Shown here one piece after another: positions 1,042-12,858 of a DNA stretch of 64,000 bases. Below the pieces are notes generated by a model. It was not told where the DNA came from and made no database searches. It worked only from the letters and a program-made list of their open reading frames with translations. The DNA is taken from the IMG/VR virus record IMGVR_UViG_3300049792_000048, positions 1 through 64,000 of that record, one strand, 5' to 3'. Every line of letters starts with the position of its first letter. Positions within the stretch are counted from its first letter, which is position 1. The translations under genes and the position numbers were made by a program. Source of the stretch: a virus. Lineage: Duplodnaviria > Caudoviricetes.

Positions 1042-1089
1042 TCACGTAGGGGCTTCGTCTTTTGGGTCGTGTCGGGCTATCCTGCCGAC

Positions 1090-2910
1090 ATGCCGGCACA
1101 GTTTCGCATCGACCAGGTTACCCCGGGAGCGGGAGTAGCAGGACGATCGCGTCATGATCTCGTTCCTGGAGAGATCATCACGCTCAATGCGACGAGCCCG
1201 ACTCCTGGTGCTGGCGTCTCATACTCATGGGAGATTCTCGACAAGCGCGGTTCGACCGCAGTGCTGTCGGGGACCACCGGGCAGACGGTCATCATCGGCA
1301 TCTCTGGGCTGATCATCCGCCCGAGTGCATTCCTCATCGAGCTGACGGTCAACGACAATGGCATCATCACGAAGTCGCGACGTATCGCGTCGGTTCGTAC
1401 ACTGAACGCTCAACTTCGTGTTCCTGTCTATGTCGAGACGGCTCCGATGTCGAACAAGCTCAGCTTGCACGATGCCGATCTCGCCACGGACAACGCTCTC
1501 TATGGGAACCGCTCCGGTCTCGGTGTTGCTGAACAGAACTGGGCGGGCTGGTCGGAGTGGGCGTGGGAGCTCGTCATGGCGGTCGAAAGCTCGATCGGAG
1601 CTTCTGGGCCACCGTCAGGTCCTGCCAGTGGTGACCTCTCTCTGAGCTACCCGGGCCCGAGGGTCTCCAAACTCTACGGTGTAGCAATCGATGCTTCTGC
1701 GGCGTCGCCGGCGACCGGCTCCGTGTTGAAGTACGATGGCACCAACTACAAGCCGAGCGTGGTCACCGGGAAGCAGTACAACAAGGTCGTCGTTGGCAAC
1801 TCGGGCCAGGGAGACATCTCGTCTGATTGTGACTTCCTCGACAATGGCAACTGCTTGGGCATCGAGGCTGCTCTCGCGTCCCTCGGAGGTCAGGGCGGCG
1901 ACATCTTCGTCCGTCCGGGCAACTACAGCTTGAACACGCACAGCGGGGCCGCGACCCCGCTCGTCGTCCCAAACAACGTTCGGTTGATTTTTGCCCACAA
2001 GGCGAGCTGTACCCTCACCGCCTGTATGACCCCGGACATCGACGAGTCGATGGCGATCTTCAGCATTCAGGGTGCTGGGCAAGTCGAAAACCTCACGATC
2101 TACATCGATGCTCCGGGCTTCACGAATGCGGGGACGGAGAACACTTTCATCGATGTCGGTACTGCGGGAGTGCTTCGCAACATCGACATCTTCATGGGGG
2201 CAATCCTCTCGGGGGCCTGGGCGGACTTTGGCAATATCAGTAGCGTGGTCCAGTTCACGGCAGCCTCCCATGTTGAAGATGTCGTCATCTACAGTCCTCC
2301 GAGCTTCATCGTCTCGGGAGGCAACGTACTCACATCCTTCCACGGTTCTGGATCCCCGGGGACGAACCCGTTCTATGTGGTGCGGTGCCGTGTCAACTCT
2401 TCGTCCATGACTCGTGGTGGTGACATCGGCTTCTCCACCAACTTCGGTCCGGGCTACTTCGAGTCGTGCGCTCCCACAAATGCGTTGGAGACGGGTTTCC
2501 TGCTCTACGAGAGCAGTGAGGGTGTGCAGATCACTGATCCTCAGATCGTGTGGACGGGTTCTGATGTCTTCGGACATCTCGCCGTGGTCTTCGGTGACGG
2601 TGACCCTAGTGACCACGTCATCGACTGCCATGTCCGTGGGGGCTACATCGATGGCCAGTCCTCCATCGGTTCCCCGGCTTTCGGCTTCACCACGGATAGT
2701 GGTGAGGTGAATCGGAACAAGATCCATGGAGTGACCGTCAGGAACTTCGGGGTCGCCGCAGGCTTCATTGCGTCCAGCGGTGGCCACTTGAATGCGAACG
2801 ACATTCAGTTCTGCACTTTCAAGAATGTCCCCAGCGTGTACGACACCGATGGCAATGACACCAACACCGTGATCGACAACAACGTCAACGATACGGGCGG
2901 TGGCGCATGA
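1090..2910 (+). CDS. virion protein with C-terminal right-handed beta-helix (tailspike/depolymerase-like)
   Basis: N-terminal PKD/Ig-like segment (YSWEI); fibre linker GDLSLSYPGP..VLKYDGTNYKP; IEAALASL..GGDIFVRPGNY beta-helix cap followed by Asn/Gly/Ile-rich coils. Confidence 0.65.
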   Translation: MPAQFRIDQVTPGAGVAGRSRHDLVPGEIITLNATSPTPGAGVSYSWEILDKRGSTAVLSGTTGQTVIIGISGLIIRPSAFLIELTVNDNGIITKSRRIASVRTLNAQLRVPVYVETAPMSNKLSLHDADLATDNALYGNRSGLGVAEQNWAGWSEWAWELVMAVESSIGASGPPSGPASGDLSLSYPGPRVSKLYGVAIDASAASPATGSVLKYDGTNYKPSVVTGKQYNKVVVGNSGQGDISSDCDFLDNGNCLGIEAALASLGGQGGDIFVRPGNYSLNTHSGAATPLVVPNNVRLIFAHKASCTLTACMTPDIDESMAIFSIQGAGQVENLTIYIDAPGFTNAGTENTFIDVGTAGVLRNIDIFMGAILSGAWADFGNISSVVQFTAASHVEDVVIYSPPSFIVSGGNVLTSFHGSGSPGTNPFYVVRCRVNSSSMTRGGDIGFSTNFGPGYFESCAPTNALETGFLLYESSEGVQITDPQIVWTGSDVFGHLAVVFGDGDPSDHVIDCHVRGGYIDGQSSIGSPAFGFTTDSGEVNRNKIHGVTVRNFGVAAGFIASSGGHLNANDIQFCTFKNVPSVYDTDGNDTNTVIDNNVNDTGGGA

Positions 2911-5213
2911 CGACCAAGAATGTTCCTGCGCAGCAGAACCACTTCTGGCCCCCGGGCACCACCGATCCTGGGTCTGCGGCGGCCGAGCCGCTGTTGCGGC
3001 AGGGCGACATCTACTACAACACGGGAAGCCTCAAGCTTCGGAAGTGCGACAATCCGACTTATCCGGCAACATGGTCTTCCGTAGGGTCGCCCTCTTTGCA
3101 GGACGTCTATGCGGCGAGCTCGCCTCCTCAGATCGACTTCGGTGGGAGTTCGCTCCTCTTCAAGGACGGCTCCAATACTGTTCTGAACCTCGCACTTGCG
3201 GGTGTCTCAGTAGGGTCACTCACGTCGGTTGTGCCGCTTGCCGTGCACGGTATCGTGACGGTGAACGCCGGTACGGCCGCTCTGCCCTCCTTGAGCTGGA
3301 TCACTGATCCAGACACTGGTGTCTATTCAGCTGGCGCAAATGTCCTGGGGCTCTCCGCGGGAGGAAGCCTGCGACTCAGTGTGAGCACGGCAGCGGTGAC
3401 CAGCACGCTGCCGTTCTATGCGCCTGATGGTGCAGCCGCGACGCCGTCATACGTCTTCACCTCGGACACGGATACCGGCTTCTATTCGGGTGGCACCAAC
3501 AAGCTCGGCATAGCGACAGGAGGCACCGCTCGCCTGTTCTTCGATTCGTCCACGGCATCCTTCTCGGTGCCGGTCTACGGAGTTGATGGCGGCGCGGGTT
3601 CGCCCGCGCTGAGCTTCAACAACGACCCGAACACGGGTCTCTACTCAGTCGCAGCGGATACGCTGGGCATCTCCACAAACGGAGTGCTTCGGCTCGCCAT
3701 CTCGACGACAGGTATCGATGCCGTGCTGCCGTACCGTGCCCCAAGCGGTACGGCAGGGGCGCCGGGCTACGAGTTCGTTTCCGACAACACGTCCGGGATG
3801 TTCCTGCCTGGAGCTGGCATCGTAGCTATCTCGACGGCGGGTGCAGAGCGAGTGCGCTTCACTGCTACCGACTCGACGCTCACAGGCAACTGGCTTCCCG
3901 AGGCCGACAACACGCGGAACCTGGGTTCCGCAGGTCTCCAGTGGGCACAGACACACAGCAACGTGTTCTATGCAGGCTCGGGCTCTGGCGCTGCGCCTGC
4001 TTACACGTTCGCTGCATTCCCTCTCGTTGGCTTTTTTGCCAGCTCCGTCAACGACCTGTACTTGGCCATGCAGGGCCAGGCGAGGTTCGTGTTCGGTGTT
4101 GGTGGGTTTTTTGGAGTAACTTCCACCAACAACCCTCTCGTCTTGTATGGCAACCCGAACTCCTTCGCAGATGGAGTGCAGCTCACAGCAGGTACGACGT
4201 ATCAAGGGTTCGCTGGAAACCAAAACGCCGTAAGGATAAACGCGACTGTTGCACAAACAGGAACTGCTGGATTCACCGGCATCGACATCAACATCACGGA
4301 AACTACGCTCGGTAGTGATCCTAAGTACATCATCAACGCCAAGGCGGGGGCAGCTGGCACCACACAGGTGTTCGCGATCACCCACACAGGTCAAGTGTTG
4401 TTGCCTGATGGCTCCTTCGGAGCCCCGGCTATTGCCTCGCTAACTACACCGGATGCGGGCTGGTTCTGTGCTGCTGGTGGATGGTCTTTCGTAGCTTCGG
4501 GCGGTATCCAGGTCGTAGACCTGCATGATGATGGCATCTTCACATATGTAGGCATCCAGCCCAACACAGACAACTCGCAGACACTGGGTGGTAGTGGCAC
4601 TCGGTGGGCTGAGGTTCACAGTGTCCATTTCTACGGCGCTAACGGGACAACTGGCTTGCCTACATACTCATTCGACACCCAAGCCGATTCGGGTATGTAT
4701 CTCAAGGCTTCTTCAAAGATCGCTTTTGTGACCCCTGGATATGGTGGTGAACAGCTAATCATCGATGGAAGTTCTGGCGATTCTCAGATCTTGTTTGCCC
4801 CTGGAAGTGGTGGTGTTCCTGGGTTGGCATGCATGAGCGACCCCGACACCGGAATCGATCACAACGGTCCGATAGCCAGCAGCGACTTGACGCTACAGTC
4901 GCATGGGTACCTTGTGGCTGCTGCCTCCGGGGTGGGGGCCGCATTCATTCCCGGCGCAGACAACACCTACAAGCTCGGAACCTCGTCCTTCCGTTGGTCG
5001 GACGTGTTCGCCGTACAGACCACCATCGGTGACTTGACAATGAAGAATCCGAATGGAGGTCCGGAGCACTGGAAGCTGATCGAGGGTCTCGATGAGATCT
5101 GGGCGTACAACGTCCGCACTCGCAAGAAGTACAAGATCGGCATGGTCGAAGCAGAGGTCACTGAGGCGGACCGTCAGCTCATGGTTGCCGAGGAGGCTCG
5201 GTTCCATGAGTGA
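2907..5213 (+). CDS. tail fibre protein
   Basis: About 8 copies of the G-x-A-x-P-S-x-F-x-x-D-x-D-T-G fibre repeat, 3 copies of P-x-x-D-N-x-x-x-L-G-x-x-x-x-x-W, and a C-terminal GDL..W..EG..N.RT.KKYK fibre end domain. Confidence 0.8.
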   Translation: MTTKNVPAQQNHFWPPGTTDPGSAAAEPLLRQGDIYYNTGSLKLRKCDNPTYPATWSSVGSPSLQDVYAASSPPQIDFGGSSLLFKDGSNTVLNLALAGVSVGSLTSVVPLAVHGIVTVNAGTAALPSLSWITDPDTGVYSAGANVLGLSAGGSLRLSVSTAAVTSTLPFYAPDGAAATPSYVFTSDTDTGFYSGGTNKLGIATGGTARLFFDSSTASFSVPVYGVDGGAGSPALSFNNDPNTGLYSVAADTLGISTNGVLRLAISTTGIDAVLPYRAPSGTAGAPGYEFVSDNTSGMFLPGAGIVAISTAGAERVRFTATDSTLTGNWLPEADNTRNLGSAGLQWAQTHSNVFYAGSGSGAAPAYTFAAFPLVGFFASSVNDLYLAMQGQARFVFGVGGFFGVTSTNNPLVLYGNPNSFADGVQLTAGTTYQGFAGNQNAVRINATVAQTGTAGFTGIDINITETTLGSDPKYIINAKAGAAGTTQVFAITHTGQVLLPDGSFGAPAIASLTTPDAGWFCAAGGWSFVASGGIQVVDLHDDGIFTYVGIQPNTDNSQTLGGSGTRWAEVHSVHFYGANGTTGLPTYSFDTQADSGMYLKASSKIAFVTPGYGGEQLIIDGSSGDSQILFAPGSGGVPGLACMSDPDTGIDHNGPIASSDLTLQSHGYLVAAASGVGAAFIPGADNTYKLGTSSFRWSDVFAVQTTIGDLTMKNPNGGPEHWKLIEGLDEIWAYNVRTRKKYKIGMVEAEVTEADRQLMVAEEARFHE

Positions 5214-5583
5214 CAACGGCAAGATCTTCACCCGCCGGTTTGTGTATCAGACGACAACCAGCGGCTCAGCGTCCGGCGTGTGGACCATCGCTCAGACCAA
5301 CAACACCTTGTGGTCGGTCTCGATGGTGTGCATCGCCCGGGATCAGGCCGGGACACATCGTGCAATGTATCGGCGGCATGGACTCATCTACCGGCAAGGT
5401 GGAGGAAACTGCACGATTCAGGGCAGCATCGAGACCGTGGGCACTGATATCGAAACCAGCGCGACGCTCGATGCCACCCTGGGTGTATCGGGTACGTCGA
5501 TCGGGTCGAGCGTGGTTGGTCTTGCTGCGACCACCATCGACTGGTCCTTCATGTTGACGATCTTGGAAGCCTCCGCTCCATGA
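5206..5583 (+). CDS. small beta-rich virion protein
   Basis: ATG 5206 overlaps fibre 3' end; Thr/Ser/Gly-rich beta pattern. Confidence 0.55.
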   Translation: MSDNGKIFTRRFVYQTTTSGSASGVWTIAQTNNTLWSVSMVCIARDQAGTHRAMYRRHGLIYRQGGGNCTIQGSIETVGTDIETSATLDATLGVSGTSIGSSVVGLAATTIDWSFMLTILEASAP

Positions 5584-5899: not shown

Positions 5900-7363
5900 G
5901 TGATGAACGAACTGATTGCACACGCCCTTCTTCATCAGGTGCCGATTGCAATCGGTGTCTGGGATGCCGAAGGTGCGACCTCTCCGCAGGACATGAGGTT
6001 GATCTTCATGAACGAGTGGGGTGTCAAGAACATCATGTCCGGCTATGGGGTTGGGCGTGAGCACGTAGAGGGGAAGACCTTCCGTGAGATCACCTCTGAG
6101 CAAGGCAGGGAGCCGAACGCGAACTTCGTGCAGAACCTCTACGAGACTGCGCAGTCGCAGAGCCCTCGGCAGGTGGAGCTTGGAACGATCTTCGGGCGGA
6201 CGTACCGCATGTACTTCTTGCCGATGGGCACCCGTGTCGCAGCCTCGATGTTTGAGGACATCACAGAGATGCACGACACGAACCGTCGCCTCTCGTTGGC
6301 GCTGGAGTCTGCCAAGGCAGGGATGTGGTGGTTCGACTATGTCACCGACATGCAGAGCTGGGACGCTGGAGCTGCACAGATGCTCGACCTCGGAGCTGCC
6401 TCCACATCTTCGGGGACATCACTCGATCTCTTCTACTCGAAGATCTTGCCGGCGGACGTGAAGGACATCAGTGCGCTGATCGATCGAGCTCTGGCAAACC
6501 CGGAGGTCTCCAACATCGAGCTGGAGTTCTCATTGGTGAAGGCCGATGGCCGGACGGTCGTGGTGATGGATCGGGCTCAGATCTATCGCGAGGACGGGAA
6601 GATCGTGCAGATGATGCACGTCTTGATCGACGTCAATGACAAGGTTCAGCTCACCAAGAAGCTTCAGCAGTCGAACTCCGACTTGAAGAACTTCGCCCAC
6701 GTCGCCTCGCATGATCTTCGTGAGCCGCTGCGGGTCATCAGTAACTACACGCAGCTCCTGTTCGAGGAGTACGGCCAGCTCTTCGAGGGTCAGCCGGAAG
6801 CCATGCAGTACCGCTCGTTCATTCAGGACGCTTCCAAGAGGGCCATGTCTCTTGTCGAGGACCTGCTTCGGTTCAGTCGTGCCGGCAACAACATGAACCC
6901 CCAGGAGAACGTCTCCTTGACTCGCCTCGTTCGCATCGCGATGGAGAACCTGCGGGTCTCGATCGATGAAGCGCGGGCGGACATCAAGATCGACAATCTC
7001 CCGTCGGTTACATGCGACGCCGGCATGATGGTGCAGGTCTTCCAGAACCTGCTCAGCAACGCCGTGAAGTTCACCTCCAAGGGTGAAAGTGGGGCATATC
7101 CGCACATCCGTGTGACGGCGAGCGACCACGGTCGCATGTGGTTGATTCAGGTCAGGGATGATGGACTTGGCATCGAGCCCGAGTTCCTGACCAAGATCTT
7201 CACTCCGTTCTACCGTCTCTACACGACCGCAGAGTATGATGGGACCGGCATAGGTCTCTCGCTTTGCCAGAGGATCGTCCGAGCTCACGGAGGCGACATC
7301 TGGGCGGAATCGGGTGGCAAGGGCCAGGGAACGACCCTTTCTTTCACCCTTACGAAGGCGTAA
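5900..7363 (+). CDS. cytoplasmic PAS-domain sensor histidine kinase (HisKA + HATPase_c)
   Basis: PAS/PAC (AGMWWFD..SWD..DGR..DVND), H-box ASHDLREPL, N-box QNLLSNAVKF, G1 DDGLGI, F-box IFTPF, G2 GTGIGLSLC; no obvious TM helix. Confidence 0.93.
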   Translation: MMNELIAHALLHQVPIAIGVWDAEGATSPQDMRLIFMNEWGVKNIMSGYGVGREHVEGKTFREITSEQGREPNANFVQNLYETAQSQSPRQVELGTIFGRTYRMYFLPMGTRVAASMFEDITEMHDTNRRLSLALESAKAGMWWFDYVTDMQSWDAGAAQMLDLGAASTSSGTSLDLFYSKILPADVKDISALIDRALANPEVSNIELEFSLVKADGRTVVVMDRAQIYREDGKIVQMMHVLIDVNDKVQLTKKLQQSNSDLKNFAHVASHDLREPLRVISNYTQLLFEEYGQLFEGQPEAMQYRSFIQDASKRAMSLVEDLLRFSRAGNNMNPQENVSLTRLVRIAMENLRVSIDEARADIKIDNLPSVTCDAGMMVQVFQNLLSNAVKFTSKGESGAYPHIRVTASDHGRMWLIQVRDDGLGIEPEFLTKIFTPFYRLYTTAEYDGTGIGLSLCQRIVRAHGGDIWAESGGKGQGTTLSFTLTKA

Positions 7364-7365
7364 CC

Positions 7366-7767
7366 GTGCAGCACCGCGTTCTACTGGTCGAGGACAACGC
7401 TCCCGACGCTGTCCTCGCCAAGAAGGCGTTTGCAGCGTTCGACCGTGTAGAGATGCGCATCGCGATGACGGCAGAAGCAGCCGCGTCGATGTTGGAGCAC
7501 GAGCTCGTCGATCTCATCTTGCTTGACCTCAACCTACCAAAGATCAGTGGGTTCGAGCTCTTGTTGAAGTTGAAGAGCGAAGAGCTTACCAAGTCGATCC
7601 CTGTAGTAGTGATCACGAGCTCATCTTCCCTCGACGACATCGAGAAAGCGTACCGCCTCGGGGCAGCCGGTTACCTGATCAAGCCGATGTCTCTGACAGC
7701 ATTCCGAGACATGGTAGCTATCCTGGGCGCGTACTGGTTTCAGGTCTCGAAGCTGCCGGCGAGGTAA
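7366..7767 (+). CDS. single-domain response regulator (Rcp1-like receiver)
   Basis: VLLVEDN, LILLDLNLP (acceptor Asp), IPVVVITSS, GAAGYLIKP; GTG 7366. Confidence 0.92.
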   Translation: MQHRVLLVEDNAPDAVLAKKAFAAFDRVEMRIAMTAEAAASMLEHELVDLILLDLNLPKISGFELLLKLKSEELTKSIPVVVITSSSSLDDIEKAYRLGAAGYLIKPMSLTAFRDMVAILGAYWFQVSKLPAR

Positions 7768-7769
7768 AC

Positions 7770-8585
7770 ATGGCCATCCCCATTCACGTACTGCTCGTCG
7801 AGGACAGCACCCCCGATGCAAACTTCATCGAGTCGAGGCTTCTTCAGGCCACGCTACTGAAGGTCGGGGTCGAGGTTGCGACCTGGCTGAAGACGGCCAT
7901 CACCCTCTTGTCCAACAAAAAGTTCGACGTCGTGCTGCTCGACCTCGGTCTTCCGGACAGCCAGGGCATCGACACTCTCGTCGAGATCCTGAAGGTGTCC
8001 CCGAACGTCCCCGTCATCGTGCTCTCGGGACGTGAGGACATGGAGACCGCGATCTTGGCGGTTCGTGCTGGAGCTCAGAGCTATCTTGTAAAGAAGCCGG
8101 GTCTGACCCCGGAACAGCTCGAACGCGAGATCTTCTATGCTCGCGAGCGGAAGATGAACGACCTCACCGCCAAGAAGCTCACCCGAGCGTCGATGGCGAG
8201 CCTGCGGACCATCGACGAGCGCCCAGGACGTTCTTCGACTCCCCCGCCGGTCGATACCGGTCTCCTCTCACGTCACATCTCGACGATCGAAGATTCGATC
8301 GCGAACGTGCGTCTGCATCTCATGAAGAACGCTCCGTCGCAGTCCGAGGCTGTTCAGGAGATCCTCCAGAACCAGGGCGCCTACGTCGCTCTGCGTGAGA
8401 TCCGTAGCTATCTTCAGCTCGATGATGATGCCGCACCACGTACGCGGCCGATCTCGGAGGCTGCCTTGAAGGCGGTGCGCGAGGCTTCAGTTCCTCCTGG
8501 GATGCCAATGCCGAAGAACCTCACAGAAGCGCGGGCCGCGGTGCTAGACCTCATCAGCGACGAGGAGAATGACCGTGTCGGGTGA
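7770..8585 (+). CDS. response regulator: receiver plus unrecognised helical C-terminal region
   Basis: VLLVEDS, VVLLDLGLPDS, PVIVLSG, GAQSYLVK; C-terminal ~130 aa lacks a recognisable output domain. Confidence 0.88.
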   Translation: MAIPIHVLLVEDSTPDANFIESRLLQATLLKVGVEVATWLKTAITLLSNKKFDVVLLDLGLPDSQGIDTLVEILKVSPNVPVIVLSGREDMETAILAVRAGAQSYLVKKPGLTPEQLEREIFYARERKMNDLTAKKLTRASMASLRTIDERPGRSSTPPPVDTGLLSRHISTIEDSIANVRLHLMKNAPSQSEAVQEILQNQGAYVALREIRSYLQLDDDAAPRTRPISEAALKAVREASVPPGMPMPKNLTEARAAVLDLISDEENDRVG

Positions 8586-8991
8586 AGATCTCTTCGTTAA
8601 GTTGCGCGACCTCGAACAGAGGGTTCGTCGAGGCTTTTCTGGCTTCAACTTCATGCTCACCGGGCTGTCGAGCCGCGTCGAGAACATGGAGAGCTCACAG
8701 AAGGATGCCACGAAGAAGATTGACGACGTCGAGAAGGACGTCAGCGATCTCGCAGTTCGCCTCGCCAAGCTCGAAGGGCACCAAGAGGGCGTCCGAGATG
8801 GGCGCGAAGACACCGCCCGCACCTTCGCTGAGGTCAAGGAAGTGCGGAAGGAGCACCACGAAGAGAAGAAGCTCGGCTTGGAGTGGTGGAAGACCACCGC
8901 CCCGATCATCATCGCCCTCGTTACTGGTGTTTTCGGACTGATCGCTGGCGTCGTGGCCCTGCTTCAGTCCATCCTCGGGCTTGGGCACTGA
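8569..8991 (+). CDS. coiled-coil protein with C-terminal TM helix (XhlA/holin-like)
   Basis: Heptad region then hydrophobic PIIIALVTGVFGLIAGVVALL. Confidence 0.55.
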   Translation: MTVSGEDLFVKLRDLEQRVRRGFSGFNFMLTGLSSRVENMESSQKDATKKIDDVEKDVSDLAVRLAKLEGHQEGVRDGREDTARTFAEVKEVRKEHHEEKKLGLEWWKTTAPIIIALVTGVFGLIAGVVALLQSILGLGH

Positions 8992-10649
8992 TGACCGCCG
9001 ATCCCAACATGAGGTGCGTGTGCGGGTACCGGATCTTCCGTGACCAGCGCATCACCATCACCGAGCCGACGTCACAGTGGGTGCTGTTCGACAACGGTGC
9101 CTTCGAGGGCTTCGGTTCGACCCCGTACGGCACGTACTTCGGCTCAGGCTCCTCTGGTACTTGGGGTCTGTTCGAGGTCGATGTTTCTCGCACCCACAAG
9201 CAGCTTGTCTGTGAGAGCTGTGCTCGGGTCCGGAGTGACGTCGTTCTCAGCGGTATCGGCTTCTTCGGGAGCTACTTGCTCGGTGACAGCATCTTCGTGT
9301 TGGTGACGGACACCACGTTGTTGGGGTGTATCCGCATCCGTTTCGAGAGCGTAGAGCTCGGAATCAGTGTGGACGTCTTTCCGACGGTATACACAGGGGA
9401 TCCGCTGCCCCTTGCTGCTCCGACACCGGATGTCACGGCAGATGACCCTGGTAACCCGGTCGCTGGCGTCCTGCGGGCTCTTCTGCCTGATGTGGACCAC
9501 GACGGCACCTTCGTGGTCTCCTTGGTCGACGTGTGCTCTGGGACGGCCGTCCCACTAGCCAACATTCCCTTGGAGTCCGCTGTGCAGATTCACTACCCCC
9601 ACGAAGCAGATCTCAACGGCATGCCCTCGATCGTGATCGAGCAGAACGTGCGGGCCTACAATCCGGTCTCGCAGCCGGGCACGAGCTCGGTCCCATCGAT
9701 CCCATTCGACAAGTGCGACGTCGTCATCGAGTATGACGCCCGCTTCGGACAGCTTCCGGGGCCCGCTGGCTTCACGAACGGGGGCGGCGGGGGCACCTAC
9801 ACACTGGTCGATGGCGGAGTTCTCTCGATCATCACTGGCGGCACCAGCGACAAGTACTTCAAGGAAGTCACTCTCGGAGCAGCATTCTCCGAGATCCACA
9901 TGTACGCACAGGTTCGTACGGACGCTTCGACAGAAGCGACAGCGAACGAAGGTCTGCATCTACTCGGGGATGGCGCTCCTGGAGCGTCCGGCTCGTATCT
10001 GGGCATGCAGATGCGCTCTCGGATCCGGAAGCTTGCGATGCTCACTCTCGATGAGGTCACGGCTAACCCTCTGCCGCAGGAGATGCCTGCTTCGGGGTGG
10101 TGGAACTTCTACTCGGGCCTCAAGGTGGGTGCCTCAAAGTACGCCGTTGCTCTTCCAGCTCTGGCCGGTCCCATCGATCCGAGCTCGTGGGGAACAGGAA
10201 GCGCGGGCGGCGTGAACCCCACGGTTCGCATGACCTTCGGCGACCTCGTGGGCTCCACCCTTCAGTCGTATCTCCGCAACATGGTCGTGAGCTGTGGTGG
10301 ACGCTTCGTTCGAGCGTTCTTCCGCAGCTATGCGGCTGCTGCGGCGCCGGTGCTTCGTCTCTCCATCTCGGGCGATGTCGATGCCGGTCCGGGCACGACT
10401 GTCCGGTTCCGTGTTCGCTATGGCTCTCTCGGACCTGGTGCGAGTCCGTACAGTCTCGGAGCTGCCACGATCGTCGAAGCGACGGCAAACTTCTCCTCGA
10501 AGAATGTCGTCGTCGAGGTCCCCTTCCAGCTCACCGGGTTGGTTGCGAAGGCGCCCTTCTGGTTCTCCGTGGAGCGGGCCTGGGAGAACATCAACGACAC
10601 GATGCCTGGCACGGCGCATCTGATCGCTGCTACGGTTCGTTCGTCATGA
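8991..10649 (+). CDS. probable virion structural protein with N-terminal Zn ribbon
   Basis: TGATG overlap; CVCG...CESC; Gly/Ser/Thr-rich beta composition. Confidence 0.55.
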   Translation: MTADPNMRCVCGYRIFRDQRITITEPTSQWVLFDNGAFEGFGSTPYGTYFGSGSSGTWGLFEVDVSRTHKQLVCESCARVRSDVVLSGIGFFGSYLLGDSIFVLVTDTTLLGCIRIRFESVELGISVDVFPTVYTGDPLPLAAPTPDVTADDPGNPVAGVLRALLPDVDHDGTFVVSLVDVCSGTAVPLANIPLESAVQIHYPHEADLNGMPSIVIEQNVRAYNPVSQPGTSSVPSIPFDKCDVVIEYDARFGQLPGPAGFTNGGGGGTYTLVDGGVLSIITGGTSDKYFKEVTLGAAFSEIHMYAQVRTDASTEATANEGLHLLGDGAPGASGSYLGMQMRSRIRKLAMLTLDEVTANPLPQEMPASGWWNFYSGLKVGASKYAVALPALAGPIDPSSWGTGSAGGVNPTVRMTFGDLVGSTLQSYLRNMVVSCGGRFVRAFFRSYAAAAAPVLRLSISGDVDAGPGTTVRFRVRYGSLGPGASPYSLGAATIVEATANFSSKNVVVEVPFQLTGLVAKAPFWFSVERAWENINDTMPGTAHLIAATVRSS

Positions 10650-12144: not shown

Positions 12145-12858
12145 ATGGAATCGACGAATGTGAAGGGCTCGGTCAAGGCGGACGGTACGTCTGGCATCGG
12201 CGAGCTCACCGGGGACGACTCGATCTACGACATGGTCGCGGTCGGGGAGAAGCTGAAGGTCACCCCCGAGGTCGAGGAGCAGGTCCAGCGCCTCATGGGC
12301 GCCTTGAAGACCGAGAACCACACCTCGAAGTTCCTCTTGGAGGTCTACTTCAACGAGGAGCGCTCGAAGTTCCGCCCGTTCAGTGGCTTCCTCATGGCCT
12401 GGACGAACGGTGGCTTTGCGCATGGCGGGGGGGACGAGAAGGTCTATTTCTGCCCGAACGTCATCGATGTCGACGGTCAGCGCCGGCGCTGTGCAGCCCC
12501 GATGCCTCCGGCGCTCATCAAGCACAGGATGGGCATCTGCCTGTCGTGCAGGACCCCCAGCCGTGATCGTGACCTCGTGGGTGAGGTCTTCTTCAAGCTG
12601 CCCATGGAGAACTGGGCGCCGGTCATCGAGCGCTACTTCTTCAGGCTCGAATGCAACGCGGACATCCGCATCGGCATCATGCGTGGCGATCTCATGAAGA
12701 CCACACAGCAAGAGCAGGAGCGCGAACATCGTGGTGAGAAGCTGGAAGCGGTACGCTCAAGTCGTGAGTGGGTCCGCTACAACCTGAAGGATCTCATCAA
12801 GGATGGTGCTTCCGGTGCTACACTGGAATCTCGCCTCAACGCCTTCCTGCGCGCGTGA
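12145..12858 (+). CDS. hypothetical protein with probable Zn-binding cysteines
   Basis: GAGGAG SD; CPN...C...CLSC. Confidence 0.65.
   Translation: MESTNVKGSVKADGTSGIGELTGDDSIYDMVAVGEKLKVTPEVEEQVQRLMGALKTENHTSKFLLEVYFNEERSKFRPFSGFLMAWTNGGFAHGGGDEKVYFCPNVIDVDGQRRRCAAPMPPALIKHRMGICLSCRTPSRDRDLVGEVFFKLPMENWAPVIERYFFRLECNADIRIGIMRGDLMKTTQQEQEREHRGEKLEAVRSSREWVRYNLKDLIKDGASGATLESRLNAFLRA

Follow-up and report, generated by a model that had tools for sequence, protein, structure and literature searches.

A phage two-component module in which a response regulator with a new output domain is paired with a tail-anchored membrane protein

What does a large phage do with a complete histidine kinase relay of its own, and on what does such a relay act? 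The question is raised by four genes at positions 5903 to 8991 of a 64,000-nucleotide stretch of viral DNA (referred to here as the window), which comprises bases 1 to 64000 of IMG/VR virus record IMGVR_UViG_3300049792_000048, a genome of 195,774 bp with direct terminal repeats that is rated 100% complete. An earlier reading of the letters alone (the original prediction) had described a soluble PAS kinase, an Rcp1-like receiver, a second receiver with an unrecognized tail, and an overlapping membrane gene; this anatomy was borne out, with corrections to some of the gene starts. As read from the sequence, the genes are tightly packed, all on the plus strand, with overlaps of 1 to 11 nucleotides (nt) or gaps of 2 nt. 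Lengths are given in amino acids (aa):

5903 to 7363, plus strand: soluble PAS histidine kinase, 486 aa, with a weak PAS domain at about residues 29 to 123, PAS_3 at residues 154 to 239, HisKA with His270, and HATPase_c.
7366 to 7767, plus strand: RR1, a single-domain receiver of the Rcp1/bacteriophytochrome-regulator type, 133 aa, with a C-terminal YWF...LP motif.
7770 to 8585, plus strand: RR2, a response regulator of 271 aa, with a receiver at residues 1 to 113, an alpha-5 helix at 114 to 149, and a helical C-terminal domain at about 150 to 271.
8575 to 8991, plus strand: CCTM, a tail-anchored membrane protein of 138 aa, with a coiled coil at residues 1 to 108 and a single C-terminal membrane helix at about 109 to 132.

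Judged from sequence, these genes, which we take to be cotranslated, very probably form a functional two-component module that belongs to the phage. Our strongest result concerns the coupling of the second receiver to the membrane gene, which the original prediction had already pointed to. We inspected 15 genomic contexts, all of them phage or phage-like, and CCTM directly followed RR2 in every one; 13 of the 15, spanning at least three unrelated genomic neighborhoods, held the full series of kinase, receiver, RR2, and CCTM. The RR2 C-terminal domain and CCTM were found only with each other, and two very large searches yielded no cellular relatives of either. When a profile of the RR2 C-terminal domain was run exhaustively with HMMER against 1.84 billion representatives, it returned 28 clusters and nothing else; all are 253 to 290 aa long, bar one 116-aa fragment, and match in the C-terminal half, which amounts to a receiver-plus-domain architecture. 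A word-based search with RR2 residues 120 to 271 returned seven close orthologues only. Scans that relied on one degenerate pattern from the C-terminal alignment, and that are not a census, returned from IMG/VR, JGI metagenomes, and GTDB genomes only the sister record already known, a fragment of 1.6 kb, and one contig of a metagenome-assembled genome (MAG).

The original prediction had allowed for a chimeric assembly or a decaying remnant, and neither applies. The same block was present in five other assemblies from different samples (L002, L003, L004, L006, and the SRR29782976 contig), always in the order of a kinase of 483 to 486 aa, a receiver of 133 to 134 aa, an RR2 of 269 to 271 aa, a protein of 135 to 138 aa, and then a protein of about 556 aa. 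Since the block thus occurs in six independent assemblies, it is not an assembly chimera. The kinase orthologues in the five other assemblies are 87, 69, 65, 57, and 55% identical to that of the window, and the next matches, at 38 to 46%, covered the kinase core only. In the closest pairs (synonymous divergence [dS], 0.6 to 0.8), the ratio of nonsynonymous to synonymous divergence (dN/dS) was 0.11 to 0.19 for the kinase, 0.11 to 0.13 for RR1, and 0.09 to 0.10 for RR2, which is the most conserved of the four genes (0.086). For CCTM the ratio was 0.14, with a value of 0.39 in a second pair whose dS was only 0.34. The module is under purifying selection and is not decaying.

The module is also accessory. 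A sister phage, IMGVR_UViG_3300049049_000237 (191,681 bp, rated 100% complete, with a DNA polymerase 75% identical to that of the window's genome), keeps the genes downstream of the module site in order, and its complete genome contains no receiver domain and no histidine kinase anywhere. Among nine more distant contexts, seven carried the module (L019/L020, L021, L022, L023/L024, L025, L035, and L026). The module follows tail fibers in the window's clade and in L021. In L023, a 196-kb contig found in nine samples, and in L026 it forms a three- to four-gene island on the opposite strand between ThyX/DUF3310 and RCC1/SprT, and in L022 it lies among small open reading frames (ORFs) with DUF932. 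The original description of the cassette as embedded among structural genes thus does not extend to the family as a conserved trait, the module being found elsewhere beside ThyX or among small early-type genes.

Could such a cassette simply have been captured from a bacterium, and now sit idle or feed phosphate to host regulators? Its kinase core and receivers are of ordinary bacterial types, and a kinase gene followed by an Rcp1-like receiver is a common order in bacteria. Against this stand a deep, phage-restricted lineage (RR2 identity across family members of 30 to 90%, together with the low dN/dS values of the closest pairs), the retention of a complete cognate set in 13 contexts, and the lack of cellular relatives for the RR2 C-terminal domain and CCTM. 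The only match among 185,579 species genomes was L026, a 183-kb contig binned into a Phycisphaerae MAG; its ORFs are right in size and order, its fourth protein is CCTM-like, its kinase and RR2 match the same PHROG families as those of the window, and its neighbors are of phage type. We therefore regard a host-derived passenger or cross-talk device as very unlikely, and nothing points toward the cross-talk with host signaling that had originally been offered as one possibility.

Named phages offered no counterpart. A blastn search of the cassette against GenBank phages gave no match, and tblastn searches with the kinase and RR2 recovered receiver and kinase cores only, never covering the RR2 C terminus. 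The same collection contains an unrelated pair in the 163-kb cyanophage My-WqHQDG of Microcoleus (OR578706.1, positions 89786 to 91231), where a kinase core of ordinary type lies next to a receiver, both annotated as hypothetical. We also observed that many GenBank "phage" records labeled Listeria, Salmonella, Staphylococcus, or Escherichia consist of short contigs lacking annotation, or of contigs from whole-genome sequences of the host, with ordinary bacterial two-component genes, and counts of "phage" kinases are therefore inflated by mislabeled host contigs.

Turning to the individual parts, the kinase starts at ATG 5903; position 5900, chosen originally, is a GTG one codon upstream. Pfam recognized HATPase_c (1.4e-26), HisKA (1.2e-12), and PAS_3 (3.6e-06; 27.6 bits, cut-off 25.6). 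The first PAS, at residues 29 to 123, stayed below the Pfam threshold, there was no GAF or PHY match, and a hydropathy analysis found no membrane helix. Nine module kinases share invariant catalytic residues, namely, His270 within SHDLREPL, N382/N386/K389 of the N box, D419/G421/G423 of the G1 box, F433/F436 of the F box, and G447 to L452 of the G2 box. The 11 module kinase cores formed two strongly supported groups; a tree that held all 11 as one clade scored 81.6 log-likelihood units above a quick free search and was not rejected (p-AU 0.92).

RR1 matched Response_reg in Pfam (4e-20) and has the receiver residues E9/D10, D54, T84, and K106. A phmmer search of PDB sequences returned bacteriophytochrome regulators and RcpA/RcpB/Rcp1 proteins over the full length (6xvu, 8avv, 5te9, 1k68, and 1i3c), with E values of 8.7e-22 for 6xvu, 1.8e-20 for 8avv, 4.4e-15 for RcpA, and 4e-14 for Rcp1, all over residues 4 to 132. 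The module's front end accordingly invites comparison with Cph1-Rcp1 and the bacteriophytochrome pairs (1I3C, 1JLK, 1K68, 1K66, 6XVU, and 8AVV). The kinase has the H box SHDLREPL, many of its nearest cellular kinases are annotated as bacteriophytochrome type, the receiver gene comes directly after the kinase gene, and RR1 aligns with Rcp1, RcpA, and the Deinococcus phytochrome regulator along its whole length, C-terminal extension included. In contrast to those pairs, the module kinases lack the PAS-GAF-PHY photosensory module and have one or two plain PAS domains or none, and the phage module adds a second regulator with a new output as well as a membrane protein.

The extent of RR1 needed correction. 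The long ORF at 7264 to 7767 is misleading as a rendering of this gene, which starts at GTG 7366, three bases past the kinase stop codon (TAA, 7361 to 7363) and 7 nt after GAAGG; in a sister phage, an ATG overlaps the kinase stop. RR1 is present in all 13 module contexts, and in three of them (L021, L023, and, by inference, L019) it was missed by gene callers, lying in another frame. One branch of the family has kinase ORFs without a stop at the conserved C terminus (L021:5516-7016, L023:4447-5992, L019:536-1909, and L026:4125-5646). The run-on tail of about 90 codons is rich in Arg, Gly, Ser, and Pro and crosses the RR1 start in another frame. Callers skip RR1 because the kinase ORF, lacking its usual stop, runs these 90 or so codons into it, and modules in several relatives are therefore underannotated. 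The long overlap of kinase and RR1 may be real, or it may hide a kinase-receiver fusion made by frameshifting.

RR2, which we propose to be the output regulator, matched Response_reg over residues 7 to 109 (5.7e-18) and has E11/D12, D58, S86, and K108. In an alignment of 33 members the receiver lysine (K108) was invariant, and the acidic pair and the acceptor aspartate (D58) were kept in at least 90% of sequences. The remainder of the protein is what sets RR2 apart. Residues ~118 to 271 matched no Pfam family, and neither did ten diverse C-terminal domains at E values up to 0.1, bar one stray MerR match (0.018). The domain has conserved motifs of its own, YL-x-x-N-A-P and R-E-I-R-S, which appear in the 33-sequence alignment as an N-x-P turn and an R-E-x-R-S helix. 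AlphaFold2 modeled RR2 with a mean predicted local distance difference test (pLDDT) score of 85 from the 33 sequences; with the seven close orthologues only, the C-terminal half stayed below 50. The model comprises the receiver (1 to 113), a 36-residue alpha-5 helix (114 to 149), helices at 161 to 187, 189 to 201, and 204 to 214 (pLDDT, ~90), and two less confident ones. The receiver is nearest to NtrC1-type receivers, which dimerize through such an alpha-5 helix. Foldseek and VIA-align matches of the whole model were dominated by receivers and were uninformative on the C-terminal domain, EutV aligned over the receiver and long helix only (model residues 2 to 157), and residues 150 to 271 had no usable match in the ESM Atlas.

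Response regulators that have an output domain mostly act on transcription, and the RR2 C-terminal domain might likewise bind DNA, RNA, or a phage RNA polymerase or sigma factor, in which case CCTM would be a membrane-anchored cosensor or tether on the input side of a gene-expression switch. The RR2 model contains a short helix-turn-helix-like pair (189 to 201 and 204 to 214) with conserved Arg and Ser, which could be read in this way. The sensor part, moreover, differs among the module kinases, which have two PAS domains, one, none (L035), or only an N-terminal membrane helix (L022), whereas CCTM keeps the same form. Yet none of the ten C-terminal domains matched a DNA- or RNA-binding family apart from that stray MerR hit, and a search of PDB sequences with the C-terminal profile gave chance-level matches only (V-ATPase subunit I, E value of 0.05), with no ANTAR or helix-turn-helix protein at E values up to 10. 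An ANTAR output domain, considered as a candidate, received no sequence support, there being no PF03861 match. The C-terminal tail of RR2 is acidic (isoelectric point of 4.5), and RR2 and CCTM are paired even where there is no kinase. We consider a gene-expression switch unlikely.

CCTM starts at GTG 8575, matching the start in its relatives, and overlaps RR2 by 11 nt. Residues 1 to 108 are charged and prone to form a coiled coil. The helix comes after lysines and has only about six residues behind it, and a signal peptide is lacking; these last three features lead us to place the coiled coil on the cytoplasmic side. The architecture of a coiled coil with a single C-terminal helix was the same in 13 homologues (10 aligned members plus L035, L036, and L037). 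The original prediction had called the protein holin-like, a label that the comparisons did not sustain. Five of ten members matched phrog_689, annotated "holin," and five of ten matched phrog_5225, both weakly (for phrog_689, 6.3e-07 at best and 4.2e-04 for the window protein). No member matched a Pfam holin or XhlA family at E values up to 0.1, where only sub-threshold coiled-coil noise appeared. Language-model look-alikes were viral hypothetical proteins and XhlA-family and DUF7201 clusters. CCTM is a tail-anchored protein and not a recognizable holin. At the syntenic site of the module-less sister phage (L009:2417-2923) we noted a protein of 168 aa whose N-terminal membrane helix precedes a charged coiled coil; no homologue of it was found in the window's genome, and it may substitute functionally for CCTM, its anchor being at the opposite end.

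What, then, might RR2 and CCTM do together? A clue came from two smaller phage-like contigs, L036 (P0154) and L037 (P0151), in which RR2 is followed by a 141- to 145-aa protein with a coiled coil and a C-terminal helix, and no kinase or RR1 lies nearby. Here the pair is situated among small holin-like proteins with two transmembrane helices and signal-sequence lipobox proteins (LAAGC and VVGC), and an N-acetylmuramoyl-L-alanine amidase (Amidase_2, PF01510; 33 bits, cut-off 26) is encoded three genes downstream. Proteins with two transmembrane helices, lipobox proteins, and an amidase are the usual makeup of a lysis cassette, and PHROGs recognized none of the lysis genes of L036 and L037. In the P0151 RR2, the column of the acceptor aspartate holds a glycine, and this regulator therefore cannot be phosphorylated. 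The position of the pair inside these lysis cassettes favors the view, one arm of the original prediction, that lysis is timed through the membrane protein. RR2 and CCTM look like an old core tied to lysis, and the kinase and RR1 like a control layer that was added in large phages.

On this basis, the following course of events can be envisaged. The soluble PAS kinase would autophosphorylate at His270 on a cytoplasmic cue, e.g., a metabolite or the redox or energy state, and would hand the phosphate to Asp58 of RR2. RR1 would compete for phosphate at Asp54 as a sink or buffer and thereby set a threshold. Phospho-RR2 would probably dimerize via its long alpha-5 helix, and its helical domain would engage the cytoplasmic coiled coil of CCTM, altering the action of CCTM in the inner membrane. 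The purpose would most likely be the timing of host cell lysis, with CCTM serving as a holin partner or an antiholin-type switch.

Our confidence in the parts of this scheme is graded. That RR2 and CCTM act together at the membrane we consider somewhat probable, and for the whole chain, in which a working phage relay ends in joint action of RR2 and CCTM at the membrane, we see the case as evenly balanced. Lysis timing as the output is a tentative proposal, the best supported of the hypotheses and the most likely one. More tentative still is the broader suggestion that RR2 and CCTM represent an unrecognized class of phage lysis regulators, which in large phages have come under a dedicated kinase and a buffer receiver.

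Several observations count against lysis timing or against parts of the proposed mechanism. No endolysin, holin, or spanin was recognized next to the module in this phage and its close relatives, and a search of the whole genome for endolysins of five families (PF00959, PF01510, PF01464, PF01471, and PF13539) found nothing. The RR2s of L036 and L037, moreover, join the family at E values of 2e-4 to 7e-4 only (whole library). A large cytoplasmic domain with a C-terminal anchor is not the topology of a classical holin, and the PHROG and language-model matches of CCTM could reflect just its composition of coiled coil plus helix. The L022 kinase has an N-terminal membrane helix but lacks a sensor domain, an arrangement that would suit CCTM acting on the input side of the kinase instead of being the output, and the RR2 C-terminal domain may have a nucleic acid-binding role after all.

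The order of the genes also recalls a bacterial antiphage defense system, Detocs, in which DtcA is a kinase, DtcB is a stand-alone receiver thought to buffer stray phosphorylation, and DtcC is a cell-killing receiver-effector, some Detocs effectors being membrane-spanning (Rousset et al., bioRxiv 10.1101/2023.01.24.525353). It is because of the DtcB precedent that we propose, by analogy, a role for RR1 as a phosphate sink or buffer. Might the module itself then be a phage-borne defense or exclusion device, whose kinase senses a competing phage or another invader, whose RR1 buffers leakage, and whose phospho-RR2 damages the membrane together with CCTM? Coinfection would then be aborted or superinfection excluded, instead of normal lysis being timed. 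The three-part logic and the gene order (kinase, stand-alone receiver, and receiver fused to an effector, seen as kinase-RR1-RR2 in 13 phage contexts) agree with this, as does the occurrence of membrane-spanning Detocs effectors. The patchy distribution of the module, absent from a complete sister phage and present at several genomic sites, is typical of conflict genes. In contrast, the module's input is PAS, or absent, and not TPR; no Pfam match links its effector domain to the PNP, nuclease, or hydrolase effectors; and it has CCTM as an obligatory fourth gene. It is phage encoded, with its core pair in the ordinary lysis cassettes of L036 and L037. No PADLOC model matched the kinase, and the receivers gave weak, generic matches only (PDC-M60B, 2e-07), in a release whose inclusion of Detocs profiles was not verified. 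We judge a Detocs-like role to be improbable.

Lysis timing by such a module would have partial parallels. In Staphylococcus and Bacillus, LytSR with LrgAB/CidAB provides two-component control of holin- and antiholin-like proteins. There, too, a kinase and a regulator work with small membrane proteins, which control cell lysis and the access of murein hydrolases, but LytS is a multipass membrane kinase and LytR a DNA-binding LytTR protein, whereas the module has a soluble kinase and a regulator in which no DNA-binding domain was detected, and control through protein-protein contact is proposed. Among phages, the T4 holin T works with the antiholin RI, and XhlA of PBSX acts with the holin XhlB and the amidase XlyA. 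As proposed for CCTM, a small accessory membrane protein modulates the timing of the holin/endolysin pathway in these devices, and XhlA-type proteins resemble CCTM in having an N-terminal helical part and a C-terminal membrane helix. In contrast, none of them is known to be driven by phosphorylation, no adjacent endolysin gene was recognized in this phage, and CCTM has no Pfam XhlA match.

The G+C content of the surrounding sequence is steady at about 60%, and composition does not shift at the cassette. Elsewhere in the window we found a family A DNA polymerase, a UvsX-like recombinase, an SNF2 helicase, and many very large proteins without a known family; PF17289 terminase had no match in the window's own genome. 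Two genes flank the module:

2907 to 5213, plus strand: tail-fiber gene, 768 aa, directly upstream of the cassette (phrog_28766 tail fiber, 8.4e-26).
8991 to 10649, plus strand: protein of unknown function, 552 aa, with an N-terminal Cys-x-Cys...Cys-x-x-Cys motif.

The downstream gene starts at 8991, not at 8883, and overlaps CCTM by one base in TGATG. It had no family match in Pfam, PHROGs, or PADLOC, and we rejected it as a member of the module. Its first ~193 residues are kept as a separate 196-aa gene (L009:3226-3816) in the module-less sister phage, and we therefore assign it to the phage backbone. No counterpart of it follows the module in L022 or L023, and L026 has an unrelated ORF of 548 aa in this position. 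A PHROG scan of ten neighboring genes downstream of the module gave nothing useful, and a scan for promoters and terminators around the cassette stayed at background level. Further downstream (12145 to 12858), a 237-aa protein is 92% identical to its L006 counterpart and 53% identical to that of the distant sister phage; C103, C116, C132, and C135 are invariant, and it has no family match.

Upstream, the tail-fiber genes vary among L003, L004, and L006 while the cassette stays constant. The number and size of genes vary between a conserved protein of about 610 aa and the kinase (window positions 1069 to 5583, L003:1322-8004, L004:2-5975, and L006:3189-7711). This interval contains a 768-aa protein in the window and a 912-aa protein in one relative; two others have sets of 196 to 198, 332 to 340, 351 to 354, and 477 to 486 aa, plus one of 232 aa in L003. 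The region looks like a swappable host range (tail-fiber) cassette. About 6 kb upstream of the module in L006, ahead of the tail-fiber genes, we further observed two genes for small membrane proteins, one of 97 aa (L006:490-783), in which an N-terminal helix is combined with a coiled coil, and one of 50 aa (L006:1016-1168), which is hydrophobic. In the window, the corresponding position is close to the start. Both genes are possible candidates for the holin/spanin type in this group of phages.

It is known that phages gauge their environment by arbitrium peptide signals, captured quorum-sensing receptors, and lysis inhibition. In the literature and the named phage genomes that we searched, we found no account of lytic phages with a complete kinase-to-regulator relay of their own. 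Two-component signaling as such is well known; what is new, with respect to the databases and papers searched, is the RR2 output domain, the obligatory tail-anchored partner, the restriction to phage-like contexts, and the link to lysis cassettes. The module is a mobile, phage-restricted unit, and two of its parts, the new output domain of RR2 and its tail-anchored coiled-coil partner, are orphans. It also carries a practical warning, since automatic calls miss RR1 where the kinase frame runs on. For large uncultured phages, whose lysis genes are poorly known (this genome has no recognizable endolysin among the five families searched), it would offer a handle on such genes. If lysis is indeed what the module times, it would act as a "lyse now or wait" switch, gated by phosphorylation and responsive to the physiological condition of the infected cell, and would be the first two-component-controlled lysis clock in a phage, and the virus would be using the commonest signaling chemistry of bacteria to decide when to kill its host.

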